A stretch of DNA of 37,790 nt, from positions 1-37,790 of the forward strand of contig JANPJS010000318.1 in NCBI GenBank assembly GCA_031425655.1. The letters run 5' to 3'. Position numbers: made by a program. This DNA comes from Abditibacteriaceae bacterium (GTDB taxonomy: Bacteria > Armatimonadota > Abditibacteriia > Abditibacteriales > Abditibacteriaceae). How positions within the stretch are numbered: the stretch's first letter is position 1; each line of letters starts with the position of its first letter. Below, one piece after another: positions 1-9,000 of this stretch.

Positions 1-3000
1 GAAATTTCCACGCGGCGCTTTTGGTTGTCTTATTTAACCCAAGTTGCCACCTATTTTGCCCCCGATTGAAATCGGGGTCTACCGTTACAAAACCGGCCTG
101 CGCCGGTTAAAAAGAGTCCGCGACGGGCGCCCTTTGGGCAGGGGACTTTGTAGCGACAGACCCCGAATTTATTCGGGGTGGAGGCATTGGCAGCAACTTG
201 GATTTTTATTACTTGGACTTGGAAGTCCGGCGCTTGTCCGGCTCTTTGGCTACTTGGCTACGCCTTTGAACGGCTCCTTGTCGCTTTTCACGTCCATGAT
301 TTCGCCGGTTTTCGTATCGCGTTTGGCGCTGTTGCCGCTCGCGGTTTCAAATTGCGTGCGCTCTTTTACGGCGCCTTTACGACTCTTGTCTCCCGTATTC
401 GTTGCCATGATTGCACCCCTTTGAATTGCGACGCTCGGCGTCACATCGGCGCGGCAAATTGCAATTCATGTTCCCGATGCTTTGCCGAGGCTGGCGGCAG
501 AGGCGGTTCCGACTTGCCTTACAGCCAGATCGTGTGCTGAAACTTACGGAGTCACTTTACCGGGAGATCGTGGTGGCGAGGCACGACCTGCCTTTTCCAA
601 CGAGGTGCCGAAGGGAATCAGGATGGGCGTGGAATGCACGGAGTCCATGCGACTGATGCGCCATGCCTCGCCAACACGGCGCAGAAAAAACGGCTGCACT
701 TCATTACGGTCTGCATAAATGAACTCAACCATGAGGCGCGTCTCATTCGGCGCGGAGTCCTGCTTCGTGCGCAGGTTAACGGCGACTCCTTTAACCGGAG
801 CCATCAAGCGTTTCAAATAGCCGATTAAATACGCATCGCCTTTTTCGGCGCGCGTGCGCTCCAGTTGGCCGCGCAATGGGTCGGTAAATTGTTCCAGATA
901 GGCGGTTAAGTTCCCGGCACGCGCGGCTGCGGTCGCCGCTTCTATGGAACTTATCATGGTGTTATCCAACGACGCCGGTGTTGCTGCGGTCACGCCACGC
1001 GTAGCCGCCGTCGGGGTGCGTGGCTGGCGTGGCCGGCGTGCCGAATAAAGTGCGCTGACCAGTGCCGCGCCGAGCATCGCCAGCCCAAGCCATAACTGTG
1101 GCGGCAATTTCGGCAAACGCTTAATTGGCCGGTGCGACTTGGGCTGTGGGCGTGGGACTGACGGCGGTTGGCGTGGCATTAACGATTCCTGAAGCATCCG
1201 AAGTGGACGCGGGAGTGGGCGTGGCAATAGCATTCGCGGGGCGCGGCAGCAAGTTTAAATCTACCGGGTTGCGCTTTCCGGCACGATCCACGGAAATGAC
1301 TTTCAGGCGTGGCAGGATGTGCTCCATAGCCTCGAAATAAAGCCGGGTGTTGCTGACGCCGGGCGCGCGGCGATATGCGTTATAGGCCTGGCTAAAGCGC
1401 GCCGCATCGCCTTGGGCTTTGAGTATGGCGGCATCGCGGTAACCGATGGCTTCTTCGCGCAGTCTGGCGGCTTCTCCCTGCGCGGCGGGTAAAGTCGCGT
1501 TGGCGTAGGAACGCGCTTCCTGAATAAGGCGGTCGCGGTCTGCGCGTGCGCTGGCGACTTCGCGGAATGCGTCGGCGACCGCAAGCGGCGGGTTCACGCC
1601 GGCGATGTTGACGGCGGTAATTGTAAGGCCTAAGCCGTAGGCGTCGGACGCTTGCTGGGTGCGGAGGCGCACTGCATCCTGTGCTTCGAGCTTACCGATA
1701 GTCAACAAAGCATCCACCGGGCGCTCTGCCACCGTAGTCGCTACCGCCGCTTCCGCCGCTTGCTGCAAGACCCGTGTCGTGTCGGCTGCGGAGAATAAAT
1801 AGGCGCGCGGGTTGTCAATTGTGAACTGCACCAGCAATTCCACGTTCACCAGATTTTGATCGCCGGTGAAGCACTCGCCGTTCGCTGCCCCGCCGCGATT
1901 CAAGGTTTGATCGGCGGCTTCAAAGCCTATGTTGAGCCGCTTTTGTTCACGCACTTTGAGGCGATTGACTCGATCTACGCCCCACGGCAGCCCAATGTGC
2001 AAGCCCGGAGGCACTCGGTCGGCGACGACTTTGCCGAAGCGCCGCACCACCGCCTGTTCGTCCACTTGAACGATGTAGACCCCGGTTAAAAGCCACAGTC
2101 CGCCTAAGAGTCCCAGAATACGTTGTTTGGTCATAATGCTAATGCAGAAACGCGAAAATCAAATATTTTAACCCGACTTGCTACCCATCACATCCGAAGT
2201 AGTGGAGTCGCATTCAGCCCCCACCCAACCTCCCCCGGAGAGGGAGGAGTAGATTCTTCAAGGCCCTTTGCTTTGAAAAAACGTAACTCCTCTCCCCTCC
2301 GGGGGAGGTTGGGTGGGGGCAAAGACGATAAGTAGCAACTTGGGTTATTTTACGGTTTCCCATTGATGCGCCCGCTGGTCAGCAATCGCATCAAATCGGA
2401 GTCGGACGAGAGAATCACGGTTGTTTTTTCGTTCATGAATTTTTTGTAGGCATCCAGTGTGCGGGTCATTTTGTAAAAATTCGGATCGCGGTTATACGCG
2501 TCGGCATAGATGCGCATGGCCTGAGCATCGCCCCGTCCCTTGATCTTTTCAGCTTGCTCGTAACCGCGCGCTAAAATTTGGGTTTTCTCGCGGTCGGCGG
2601 CGGCGTGAATGCGCGTGGCCTGTTCCGCACCTTGAGCGCGATATTGGCGGGCGATGCGGTCGCGCTCGGAGCGCATCCGGGCAAAGACGCTTTCTTTGTT
2701 TTCTTCGGGCAGGTTGATGCGTCGCAGGCGCACGTCCTCCACTTCAATGCCGTATTGATCGCGCGCCGCTGCGGCACAACGCTGTTTCACGGAATCCATG
2801 ATCGCGCTGACTCGCACTTGCTTTGGGTTTGTCGCTACCAACTGGTCTAAATCGTGATTGCCCAGCGCGATGGAAATTTCCGATTTCACGATGTCTTGCA
2901 GGCGGCTCTCGGCTCCGGCGCGATCCACGACCGCCTGCAAAAACTTCTGCGGATCGTCCAGCCGCCAGATGACAAAGGAATCCACCACCAGATTTTTCCG

Positions 3001-6000: not shown

Positions 6001-9000
6001 CGGTGAAAACTTCGTCGCCGGGTTGTTTGAGTAACGGCAACGACTCGCCGGTGAGCGCGGACTGATCCACAGCCGATTGCCCGGTTTGCACCACGCCATC
6101 TACGGGAATACGCTCGCCGGGGCGGATGATGACGCTATCGCCCACCACGATTTGCTCAATCGGCAGCGTGATTTCATGGCCATCGCGCCGCACGGTCGCT
6201 GTGTCGGGCGCGAGGCCGAGAAGAGCGGCAAGTGCGCCGCGCGTTTTTTCAACGACGTAACCTTCCAGCGCCGTGCCGATCAGCATGATGAGCACGACTT
6301 CGGCGGCAGCCGCGAATTGGCCGATGGCTAACGCGGCGAAAGCGGCAATGGTTACGGCAAGGTCGCCGCCCATTTTGCCTCTGGAAAGACGCGACAGGCT
6401 GTCCCAGAAAATGCCGTAGCCACCCGCTAATGTGACCAGCAGCGCGGCATCGAGTCCGAAGATTTTGGTGACCACGCCGCTCACGTAGAGCAGCAGCATC
6501 CCCGTGACCACGCCGATCATAGCCACGTCGCTCCAGGCTACGCCGCCTTCGGCTTCGTCATCTTCGTCGTGAATTTCGTCAATGTCGGGGTCTGACATCG
6601 GTTCTGTGTGTGGTTCCGGGTAGGGGCGGGAGCCGATGTCCATGAAGGTAAGGTCGGAAAAATTGATGCGGCAGAGGTGTGATGAATTTACGCCGAAGCG
6701 ACGAAGCGGCTACGCACCATGAATCCACATCGGTGAAGACCAGGCCAGTTGACCATCGGCTTGCTCGATGCGGACATAATAATAGCTCATGCCCTGACAG
6801 CCTTCGACATCCGTCCATGACAAGTCCACTTGGGTGGTGTTCGGCATGGCAGTGTAGACAATTTTGTTGTTTTTAACGACGATAACGCGCGCTATCGGGC
6901 CGGTGCCGGTCACGCTAATCTGCAAAGACGGCAGCGTTTGGATGGTGAACTCATCGCCCATTATCTTGTTGCCGCAGCGCACGTCCAGCAGGATGTTGTC
7001 CGTGGCCGCGTAACAGTGACGCCGGCGCAAGGCATCCACGACGCCTTGAGGCGTCGGTGTCGAGGCGTAGGCCATGGTGTAAGAAATATGCGTCGAGCGG
7101 TGATCGGACGAGGATTCAAAGCCGAGCCGGTAACCCTTTGCCAGCGCGTTCCACACGTAGCCCGCCGGGTTATAACCGCCAATGGCATCGGCGGCAGTGG
7201 CGCTGCGCGGCGCGCCCTCGTATTCGTAGCTTTGACGGTCGCCTTGATAAATTTCCACGATTGGCTCGACTTCACGGTCGTTATCGCGCCAGTCTGTGCC
7301 GCCGACATACTGTCCAGAGGTATGGGCGGCGCAGATGCCGTCGAAGGCGCGCAGATATTTATAAAGCATCTTGGTGTCGTTGGGCGAAACTCCGTTGGCC
7401 TGATTGCCTTTGAGGCGTGGTAAGGGCCGGATGCCGCGTTCCGGGAAGATTATGTTGCGATGGCCGTCGGGAAAACTCACGCTGCGTTCGTAGGAAAAGA
7501 CCGGCGCGAACTGGCTTGGCACAGTAAAAGCGTCGGTGTGCTTTTGCACCAGCCACCAGGTGTATTCGCGGTCTCCTCCCGATGAGCCGGGAGCTGAGCC
7601 GCTATTGTGGTCGCCGTTGCCGATCCAGTCTAAAGTTGCGGCATCGAGGCCATAGCGCCACATATCAATCAGGCTGCCCTCGCTTTTGCCGTCGCCGGAG
7701 ATTTCCGTGTGACGATGAAACTCGCCACGGACAATCTGATAAACGTCGGGGCCGGCTCTAGCGCGGTAACTCCGCAAACGGCTCACATCGTTACGTTCAG
7801 CCAGAGTTTTGGCGTCCACATCGTGCATCGTTGCGGGGTCGGCAACCAATGCGGGAGCGACGGCGGGGCCAGACCCCGCCATCCCGGTAATCGGCGCGAT
7901 GTAGATTTGATTGCGCCACGGCGTGCTGTAAGTTTGGTTGCGCCCATCGCTGGTATGCACCAGATAAAGCGCGCCGCCCGGCCCGTTGGCGAATGCGGGG
8001 CGGGCGTCTAATGCGTTGTCGGAATTGGGCACCGTGACCACAGGCGCCCAGGAGCTGCCTTCATAGAACGTAACGACCGAGTGCCACGATGTGGAGACAG
8101 TTTCCTGCACATCGGAAATCGGACGGCGGCAGGTGAGAAACACCCGGCCTTTGTCGTCGGTGCCCAGGCGCGGAAACGCCGTTTGGGTGCCCGTGTTGAG
8201 AGTTGCTAAAGTCCCTGCGGTTTTTAAACGCTGCCCGTCGGCATAACAACGCACATTAATGGTGTGGCCCGAATAAAGCGGAATGCCGACAGCGGGGTCT
8301 CTATACAAGCGTCCATAATCCTTGCCCCACAGCGGCCCGGCTTCTTCCCAGGCGATCCACACCCGATTGGCCGCATCGCACACAACCGAAGCTCTGGCCT
8401 CAAATTTTGGTGAGTCGCTGACGTTGATGGCCGGGCCAAATTCTGCGCCGTCCAACCGGCGCAGCATGACATCGTAATCGCCCTTATCGTAGGTGTCCCA
8501 GACAGCCCAGACGCTGCCGTCGTTGCCGCACGCCAGTTGCGGGTCCCAATCGTTGGCGGAACTGGTGCTGATCGGCGTCGCGCCGTTCCAGTTTTCGGTG
8601 CCGCGCGCGACTGAACTTATCAGAATATCGGACGTGCCGTTGGCGAAGCTCTGCCAGGCCAGCCAGATGTTGCCGGAGGCATCGCGCGCCAGCGCGACGT
8701 GTAAGTCGGGGGAGGCGTCCTGCGTAATCTGAATGGGCGGGGAAAGCGCGCCGTTATTATAGCGGCGCGCATAAACGTCCCATTGGCCGCCAACCTTCTG
8801 CGACCACGCGACCCAGACCTCTCCATCTAAGCCTGTGGCCAACGCGGGACGGTAAACATCCTGTCCCGCCGGCGTGAGATCGGCCATATGCGACCACTGT
8901 CCCGCGCCGCCCTGAGCCGTCAGTCGCGCCAGACGAATCTGGTCGCCGTTGCCTTGCGGTCGCAAAAAGTCGAACGATTGCGGCTCCGTCAACATTGGAC

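Follow-up and report, generated by a model that had tools for sequence, protein, structure and literature searches.

The window analysed here is a stretch of 37,790 nucleotides from contig JANPJS010000318.1 of an Abditibacteriaceae bacterium (GCA_031425655.1), an inhabitant of soil and sediment. Near its start lie four minus-strand open reading frames that run in the same direction (3431-6643, 2350-3246, 1121-2134 and 544-1233), with a further minus-strand gene directly upstream that ends 66 bases before the first of them:

6710-9598, minus: secreted CehA/McbA-like metallohydrolase, 962 aa, the candidate client
3431-6643, minus: P1B ATPase::HflK fusion (K1), 1070 aa in one frame
4604..6643, minus: ATPase part of K1, with eight membrane helices, CPC, N619, H661-Q662 and DKTGT
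5732-5740, minus: CPC membrane site of K1, residues 302-304
5594-5608, minus: DKTGT phosphorylation site of K1, residues 346-350
4658-4663, minus: H661-Q662 of K1
4403..4603, minus: basic, cytoplasmic linker and single HflK membrane helix of K1, residues about 681-747, the helix placed by hydropathy
4145..4267, minus: inserted loop of K1, ~40 residues, with a conserved E-W-x3-H motif (W822, H826)
2350-3246, minus: hflC, 298 aa (TIGR01932), placed by HflC trees in a metal-transporter clade
2166..2350, strand not given: palindromic repeat in the gap that separates hflC from hflK2
1121-2134, minus: second, free hflK (K2), 337 aa (TIGR01933)
544-1233, minus: small membrane-anchored NTF2-fold protein, 229 aa as called

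The survey had read 3431-6643 as a heavy-metal ATPase and an HflK in one frame, and so it is. The frame runs through 1070 codons with no internal stop, and both halves pass the curated profile cut-offs: TIGR01525 scores 564 bits against 346 over residues 94-675, and TIGR01933 (HflK) scores 206 bits against 159 over residues 746-1034. The motifs that had been named are all present—TGES at 198-201, CPC (the CPx motif) at 302-304, DKTGT at 346-350 and GDGIND, an instance of GDGxND, at 551-556—and with the eight helices they mark K1 as a P1B heavy-metal ATPase. Ahead of the SPFH part comes one added hydrophobic helix (729-747). Across the fusions the linker before this helix is 20-60 aa long; it has a net positive charge in 83 of the 91 measured, and in all 91 a second hydrophobic helix is absent from it. 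Because a single extra helix follows a basic linker, the SPFH part probably lies outside, as in HflK, and hydropathy, linker charge and model together predict the HflK build of one helix, an SPFH domain outside and a coiled coil. The AlphaFold2 model of K1 (mean pLDDT 81, pTM 0.63), in which CopA (7r0g) is the top fold match with an E-value of 4e-48, supports a topologically sensible join between pump and HflK domain; its confidence is low at 804-827, and the C-terminal 45 residues are not confidently modelled.

An assembly artefact can be rejected as the source of the fusion. When residues 600-1070 were used as query (E ≤ 1e-10), 427 proteins were found among 8000 scored candidates, and the survey's observation that the C-terminal relatives are themselves fusions stands, all 120 matches listed carrying PF00702 together with PF01145. 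The worry that full fusions might be rare, raised by a yield of only 3 in 80 loci, disappears when HflC is the query, a search that is blind to the pump. In 73 of 80 loci the last helix of the pump and the HflK domain then share one open reading frame, which lies upstream in all 73 informative loci, with the junction intact in each; the remaining seven loci are too short, and in none are the two parts separate genes. Four loci contain breaks in the frame, all within the ATPase and none at the junction.

Downstream, hflC and a free hflK follow as had been described, both above their curated cut-offs (204 bits against 134 for TIGR01932; 218 against 159 for TIGR01933). K2 shares 34% identity with the HflK domain of the fusion and forms a clade of its own. 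All informative loci have the genes in the order K1-C-K2, with SPFH and coiled-coil parts complete. The small gene that ends the series occurs in 65 of the 73 informative loci. Its homologues are about 155-190 aa long, so the real start probably lies downstream of 1233. The product is modelled at pLDDT 84 and matches NTF2-like folds at Z 8-10; in the Atlas it matches only unnamed clusters and, at 0.90, DUF4864. A C-terminal PYG motif is conserved in an alignment of 50 in which no His or Cys is conserved, the latter a reason to reject a role as metal chaperone. The repeat at 2166..2350 has 27-nt arms that are 96% complementary and recurs at about 40 places in the genome; it is a passenger, outside the system. 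Promoter and terminator scans gave signals at chance level.

The metal site of the pump is unusual. C302, P303, C304, N619, H661 and Q662 are invariant in 69 aligned fusions; all 115 fusions that cover the CPC stretch have this motif, and all 120 have HQ. An N-terminal CxxC domain was found in none of 105. The CopA type (P1B-1: CPC, YN in M5, MxxS in M6) is rejected: aligned with E. coli CopA, the fused pump keeps the N but lacks the Y and has H661 in place of the M, and in the pump tree it falls outside the copper clade. The ZntA type (P1B-2: CPC, K in M5, D in M6) is no better, N619 and H661 occupying the positions of the ZntA K and D. P1B-4 pumps have SPC, with HEG in M6; K1 has CPC and HQ instead, and SPC/HEG pumps sit in another clade. 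The ferrosome-type P1B-6 pump FezB is defined by D[Y/F]SCA and HNxxT (bioRxiv 10.1101/2020.01.10.902569), both absent from the fused pumps. Judged by its residues (CPC, Asn, HQxxS/A), then, the site matches none of CopA, ZntA and FezB. Against the P1B6-like CtpC type (CPC in M4, HN in M6), K1 has CPC with HQ rather than HN, a comparison of motifs, the trees having been built without CtpC. In the pump tree the fusions make up a separate clade (97 SH-aLRT) from the pumps of loci laid out like Pseudomonas hmtA. The residues CPC, N and HQ define a P1B group. Unfused pumps with the same CPC/HQ site make up 9 of 150 representatives, and two of these are nested among the fusions; the pump can therefore do without the cage.

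The upstream hydrolase, present in a single copy in the host genome, has a signal-peptide-like N-terminus, a propeller-like middle and a C-terminal CehA/McbA-like (PHP-type) domain. On the NF038032 profile it scores 51 bits, below the membership cut-off of 80; four of 12 homologues match at 38-51 bits, and divergent paralogues beside the operon at 58-80. Nine residues—H628, H630, H664, E704, H713, H759, E782, E792 and D832—are the same in 38 of 38 aligned homologues; they make up a PHP-type set of His, Asp and Glu ligands from which metal binding can be predicted. McbA itself requires three His of its PHP-like domain (PMC8292978). Among 105 full-length homologues, 98 have an N-terminal hydrophobic stretch and none a Tat-like motif. 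A search by sequence for a solved structure resembling the hydrolase found none.

Fusion and hydrolase occur together. Among 401 genomes of the host's phylum (sample 1), in which a close hydrolase was defined by E<1e-80, the fusion is found in 31, the hydrolase in 30, and both in 27; the hydrolase is thus present in 27/31 fusion genomes and 3/370 others. The 1e-80 line was chosen after a gap in the scores was seen (at 1e-30, 18/370 non-fusion genomes match), and kinship inflates the counts, 15 of the 31 fusion genomes belonging to one genus. Samples 2 and 3 come from one phylum. In sample 2 (201 genomes), all eight fusion genomes have from two to nine hydrolase copies, and 3/193 others have one. 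In sample 3 (181 genomes), the hydrolase is present in 4/4 verified fusion genomes, three of them near copies, and in 0/177 others; it is likewise missing from all seven sample-3 genomes with an SO_0444 permease or CDF trio. The link persists within families: only one of the 26 other genomes of the host's family has either fusion or hydrolase, and it has both; a control gene from the window, common across the phylum (217/401) rather than equally rare, is in all 26. Exceptions exist. The fusion occurs without the hydrolase in G137 (91% complete), G164 (90%) and G240, and with only a fragment of it in G216; the hydrolase occurs without the operon in G074, G297, G443, G449 and G460, the pump search having covered all of these but G449. 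Of 52 loci, 27 have a hydrolase gene no more than 7 kb away, directly upstream in 19 and elsewhere in eight, these last including opposite-strand genes and paralogues of 24-27% identity. Four of the five copies in three single-contig genomes are far from the operon, so the link is not just that of one cassette travelling together. The hydrolase is likely to be a client rather than merely a recurring flank, and we consider it probable that it is a functional partner of the fusion; which partner serves the other, co-occurrence does not say. Neither the fusion nor its link with the hydrolase turned up in the literature searched, mostly papers open without subscription, and the word 'ATPase' does not occur in the main text of Hinderhofer 2009.

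The survey proposed a cage built around the pump instead of around FtsH. The first half of this gains ground, with an HflK welded to the pump, an HflC and an unfused HflK encoded in the same operon, and the same trio fused elsewhere to two further families of metal transporter. The exclusion of FtsH is less secure. The host's ftsH lies on another contig; the operon holds the sole HflK/HflC-like genes that tblastn finds in the genome, and FtsH could therefore still use them. The inserted loop of K1 separates the positions that align with residues 142 and 143 of E. coli HflK (7vhp_E), in the FtsH contact region. Its EWxxxH motif is present in 115 of 120 fusions, and W-x3-H occurs in the first HflK of 6/6 trios of hmtA layout and in 0/8 ordinary HflKs. 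The E. coli contact residues R141, E142 and R185 (PMC13220708) correspond to R, R and H in K1 but are uninformative, the set being lost in ordinary HflKs from outside E. coli as well.

How might such an operon work? We suggest that its products form a dome of their own, of HflK/HflC type, on the periplasmic side of the inner membrane, an assembly we regard as very likely. By analogy with the alternating 12+12 cage of E. coli, HflC would alternate with two kinds of HflK, free K2 and pump-bearing K1; and since both would be in the dome, the pump would stand at some positions only. The pump would move a transition metal, most likely in divalent form (Zn, Mn, Fe or Co, for instance), from the cytoplasm into the area below the dome or next to it, and export is the direction we expect with some confidence. 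Its role would be supply, not detoxification, a reading favoured because the fusions lack an N-terminal metal-sensing CxxC domain and the host has separate CopA-type and SPC/HEG-type pumps. The recipients would be Sec-exported, multi-metal CehA/McbA-like hydrolases that fold and bind metal outside the cytoplasm, metallation being the presumed nature of the link. Docking might involve the W-x3-H loop, which sits at the contact site of E. coli HflK with FtsH, and the small anchored protein of NTF2 fold. Metallation of exported enzymes by a pump has precedents in CopA2/FixI and in CopA/GolT for SodCII (PMC3817396). That these hydrolases receive metal from an exporter built into a periplasmic dome is plausible, if short of probable; that the dome with its covalently attached P1B pump is a metallation chamber for the hydrolase family is a more tentative proposition. 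If true, a bacterial SPFH cage would have the delivery of a cofactor, not proteolysis, as its role, and at least three unrelated metal transporters would have joined one general chassis, the trio. Two wider questions are touched, what SPFH cages do beyond FtsH and how exported enzymes obtain the correct metal outside the cytoplasm; and because the fusion fixes the cage partner and co-occurrence provides a client candidate, both can be tested on one five-gene stretch.

Other readings deserve weight. The cage might instead cluster and stabilize an exporter that detoxifies, in the way PacL serves CtpC, and the link with the hydrolase would then reflect a shared lifestyle. The fusion of the trio to CDF and SO_0444 Cu/Zn efflux families suits this, as do His-rich N-termini on 4/60 K2 proteins and 2/105 pumps, longer N-termini in some free CPC/HQ pumps and the need of CtpC (CPC and HN) for a scaffold for its abundance and for zinc resistance (PMC9374683). 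We think it rather unlikely nonetheless: it leaves unexplained why the hydrolase tracks the pump fusion and not the SO_0444 or CDF trios, the CxxC domain is missing, and the P. aeruginosa hmtA locus is induced by zinc shortage (PMC4542158, PMC11761036), not excess. A further reading is uptake, with the hydrolase freeing metal or a nutrient from a periplasmic chelate or ester and the caged pump importing the metal like HmtA, a reported importer of Zn and Cu in P. aeruginosa (PMC8456098). Co-occurrence is accounted for equally well in this way, Zur binds the PA2439 promoter (PMC8531726), and some trios (L047, L050, L051, L032) have uptake genes of the ZnuA family or CbiMQO nearby. Yet the fused pumps form a clade apart from the hmtA-layout pumps, most P1B pumps export, and the hydrolase paralogues, dispersed and as many as nine in a genome, would better suit a shared maturation factor than a single uptake route. 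We judge import unlikely.

The operon might also be simply the cell's HflK/C, the fusion keeping the pump beside FtsH for regulated turnover. The host has an ftsH, its only HflK/HflC-like genes are these, five of five other fusion genomes have above-cut-off TIGR01933 matches solely at the operon, and the cages of E. coli are open, with one or two FtsH each (PMC12048511). However, 366 of the 401 phylum genomes have no match at E ≤ 1e-20, so HflK/C does not show up as a general partner of FtsH here; a long loop fills the FtsH contact region of K1; and in three single-contig sample-3 genomes a second, lower-scoring hflC candidate is seen beside that of the trio. We judge FtsH-linked control quite unlikely. 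Least probable is that there is no cage, the SPFH parts forming small oligomers or anchors and the fusion just coupling expression and location. Free members nested in the fusion clade indicate that the join can be lost, and the end of K1, modelled at low confidence, leaves room for this idea, against which stand the completeness of the SPFH and coiled-coil parts, the constant K1-C-K2 order and the rings or domes formed by solved SPFH assemblies (PMC13041759).

The metal-supplying dome that we favour resembles several known systems in part. In the stomatin dome around aquaporin-1 and UT-B, too, SPFH proteins enclose a transporter (PMC13041759), but this dome is eukaryotic and non-covalent and its cargo is no metal pump. 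Mycobacterial CtpC-PacL shares CPC, a His in the last helix and the need for a scaffold (PMC9374683); PacL is instead a cytoplasmic DUF1490 protein, flotillin is dispensable, and there is neither fusion nor periplasmic dome. CopA2/FixI and CopA/GolT are P1B exporters for enzyme maturation rather than detoxification (PMC3817396); they have the copper site (YN, MxxS) that the fusion lacks, and small-chaperone hand-over with no cage. E. coli HflK/HflC-FtsH (7vhp, 7wi3, 9cz1, 9cz2, 9paw) is alike in family and in having one helix followed by periplasmic SPFH and coiled coil. The operon differs in its three cage genes instead of two, one of them fused to a pump, in the ~40-residue W-x3-H loop of K1 at the FtsH contact region, in an HflC of a separate clade and in having no adjoining hflX or ftsH.

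Other HflK-HflC-HflK trios are related to this one. They come with a CDF, with an SO_0444 permease or with an unfused pump laid out as at Pseudomonas hmtA, and the HflCs of these metal-transporter trios group together in the trees. P. aeruginosa PA2439-PA2434 also combines three HflK/C-type genes and a P1B ATPase in one operon, a likeness that rests on published gene names and order, not on the sequence of PA2435. Loci of hmtA layout (L047, L048, L051-L054) have the HflC clade and the W-x3-H loop in common with the fusions, but their pumps have CPC and HN and are not sister to the fused pumps, so simple identity with HmtA-type pumps is unsupported. Nor does the operon have the hmtA-type order of long HflK, HflC, HflK and free P1B pump: the pump is a separate last gene there and fused at the front here, and the first HflK there carries another membrane domain, for which a family search found none. 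The fusion nevertheless offers a testable idea for what the hmtA locus of P. aeruginosa, with its three unexplained SPFH genes, might do.

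The fusion operon is real and conserved, an undescribed arrangement of known parts with a concrete candidate client. The survey's finding placed four open reading frames here, and a position check agrees with it. The hydrolase gene lies directly upstream:

544–1233 (-), small fourth gene, an anchored NTF2-fold protein
1121–2134 (-), free hflK (K2)
2350–3246 (-), hflC
3431–6643 (-), P1B ATPase::HflK fusion (K1), 1070 aa
6710–9598 (-), hydrolase gene, encoding a 962-aa exported protein

As claimed, the 1070-aa protein is a single open frame with a complete P1B ATPase and an HflK domain: in profile searches these parts score 564 bits against TIGR01525 (cut-off 346) and 206 against TIGR01933 (cut-off 159). 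The two genes that follow, reported as hflC and hflK, likewise exceed the HflC and HflK profile cut-offs. An AlphaFold2 model of K1, built from 69 aligned fusions, has a mean pLDDT of 81, with low confidence at residues 1–33, parts of the linker, 804–827 and the C-terminal end; its top fold matches are P1B pumps. Because a basic linker and one further helix come after the last pump helix, the SPFH domain is predicted to lie outside the cytoplasm, as in HflK. The operon's intergenic gaps are wider than in relatives, owing to short palindromic repeats (2166–2350, 3253–3415 and 35–204); the first and last each have about 40–50 related places across the genome and the second about 8. A 1689-aa secreted beta-helix/Calx-beta/Ig-like protein (9781–14850, +) is encoded divergently from the hydrolase gene, and at 24994–29640 (+) a DUF5693 protein, a response regulator-GGDEF and a polysaccharide pyruvyl transferase stand in a row.

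Of 8000 candidates scored with residues 600–1070 of K1 as query, 427 proteins matched at E ≤ 1e-10, and both Pfam families (PF00702, PF01145) occur in 120/120 among the matches listed. To guard against pump bias, an HflC alignment was used to search species genomes; of the 478 stretches confirmed, the 80 best were retained. The fusion holds across genomes, as proposed: 73 of these 80 carry the pump M6 motif and HflK in one frame, seven end too early, and none has pump and HflK as separate genes. By record title alone, these loci are mostly from Acidobacteriota, with some Armatimonadota and three under other phylum names. Of the 73 loci long enough to hold the small fourth gene, 65 have it. The operon has a patchy distribution across the window's phylum: of 401 genomes, 35 match and 31 of these are fusions (15 judged by inspecting the locus, the remainder called from frame length and match range), and it occurs in none of three same-genus relatives. 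Searches of paper listings and main-text passages turned up nothing on the fusion or its hydrolase link.

The hydrolase has a weak CehA/McbA profile match and, in the homologue alignment, an invariant His/Glu/Asp set; no Tat motif was found in its homologues. PHP domains are known to hold several metals. This genome has one copy of the gene, and 27 of the 52 loci that extend far enough upstream have a homologue no more than 7 kb away. At L091, L112, L111, L123 and L126, the operon is surrounded by two or three such genes, which belong to different subgroups.

Fusion and hydrolase tend to occur in the same genomes. Whole-genome search of 401 genomes of the phylum (sample 1) found the fusion in 31, the hydrolase in 30 and both in 27, at a hydrolase threshold of E<1e-80 chosen after a gap was seen between 1e-84 and 1e-52; at 1e-30, 45 genomes match the hydrolase. 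Of the three genomes with the hydrolase alone, G191 carries a fusion-type pump truncated at a contig end, G074 a free CPC/HE pump and G297 neither; G182 has fragments of both fusion and hydrolase. Sample 2 comprised 201 genomes, the class of genome G401. Its eight top HflC matches, all inspected, are fusions in genomes with 2–9 hydrolase copies; 3/193 others have the hydrolase, in one copy. Inspection of 14 of 20 weaker matches gave 12 ordinary pairs and two permease trios. Sample 3 was the phylum of genome G405, 181 genomes including the unpublished G651 and G746. The 12 genomes inspected there, those with HflC matches at E<1e-95 rather than the 63 weaker ones, yielded four fusions, seven permease/CDF trios and G651, a short fragment with neither upstream gene nor hydrolase match; the four fusion genomes are the only ones in the sample with the hydrolase. 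Fisher's test gives p = 2e-34 (sample 1) and 3e-12 (sample 2); both values are overstated, as related genomes do not count as independent and handles recur between samples 2 and 3. One gene of the window, used as a control and far commoner than the hydrolase (217/401 against 30/401), does not track the operon.

Which metal the pump carries cannot be read from its sequence. CPC, N619 and H661-Q662 are invariant among aligned fusions; aligned to E. coli CopA and ZntA, N619 occupies the CopA N/ZntA K position and H661 the CopA M/ZntA D position. The P1B-4 motif is SPC with HEG in M6. In main-text passages, to which our comparison extended, the nearest described site pair is the CPC + HN of CtpC (PMC9374683), whereas fused pumps have CPC + HQ; supplementary tables of P1B subgroups may be relevant to how the pump is classed. 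A FezB-type pump was rejected, the FezB motifs in the part of that report compared (bioRxiv 10.1101/2020.01.10.902569) being missing from fused pumps. Among the 150 best representatives, 33 fused and nine free proteins are CPC/HQ. A 56-row quick tree gathers the 20 fused pumps, together with two free proteins, in a single group (SH-aLRT 97) separate from the copper and the zinc/SPC pumps. The neighbourhoods of two nested free pumps, P0369 and P0392, and of a free CPC/HE pump (L214:4388–6400) in a genome that has the hydrolase but lacks the operon could show the cage's replacement. Pumps of hmtA-layout loci (K1-HflC-K2 trios with a free P1B pump behind) share a cluster in the 56-row tree with further free CPC/H(N,Q,E) proteins, apart from the fused ones; a 25-row tree separates them likewise.

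It is in the periplasm that Sec-exported enzymes acquire their metal, a supply that some P1B exporters serve, according to PMC3817396. The fused pump would, similarly, deliver metal to periplasmic hydrolases. This role fits best, because the pump has no CxxC domain, the genome has separate CopA-type and SPC/HEG-type pumps besides, the pump is tied to a dome-forming subunit, and multi-metal hydrolases track it. By analogy with the 24-subunit E. coli HflK/HflC cage (PMC12048511), free K2 may dilute the bulky fused K1 in an alternating ring. Uptake, in which the hydrolase releases metal and the pump takes it in, would lead to the same co-occurrence; among the alternatives it is the hardest to tell apart from delivery by sequence. 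Efflux scaffolding by the cage is possible, and so is FtsH-linked turnover of the pump. K1 has a long loop at the position of R141/E142 in E. coli HflK, two residues that were changed to interfere with the binding of FtsH (PMC13220708). The loop's W-x3-H motif occurs in 115/120 fusions among the matches listed and 6/6 hmtA-layout K1s, in 0/8 ordinary HflKs (from the hflK-hflC pairs of eight named records) and in neither permease K1 examined. Loss of FtsH binding does not follow from the loop, since most ordinary HflKs also have an insertion there, if a shorter one.

K1-HflC-K2 trios are also found with other membrane proteins. K1 carries a CDF transporter in L046, L049, L050 and L208, and an SO_0444 permease in L175 and L177 (above cut-off) and six more by similarity. 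In L046 (5130–7400) and L049 (10516–12645) an unfused SPC/HEG pump whose N-terminus is very rich in His comes after the CDF::HflK trio; one trio thus has two metal transporters of different kinds. Among four inspected neighbours of hmtA-layout and CDF trios, no secreted metallophosphoesterase was found. Trio HflCs are set apart from ordinary ones (SH-aLRT 99 with the permease type left out; 90/87, not starred, with it included); the HflK side gives no resolved grouping. On a Vibrio plasmid (L143:3414–6801) nhaA comes directly after an ordinary hflK-hflC pair, possibly another transporter client; hflK is found on several Vibrio and Roseobacter-group plasmids. In the hmtA-layout trios (L047:9381–11261, L048:4324–6216, L051–L054), K1 bears a membrane domain for which Pfam, NCBIfam and the named Atlas clusters give no match; the pump behind the trio is a free one of the CPC/HN type. 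P. aeruginosa PA2439–PA2435 is induced by zinc shortage (PMC4542158, PMC11761036) and bound by Zur (PMC8531726), and in one study zinc gave no repression of hmtA mRNA; in gene names and order it agrees with the hmtA-layout trios.
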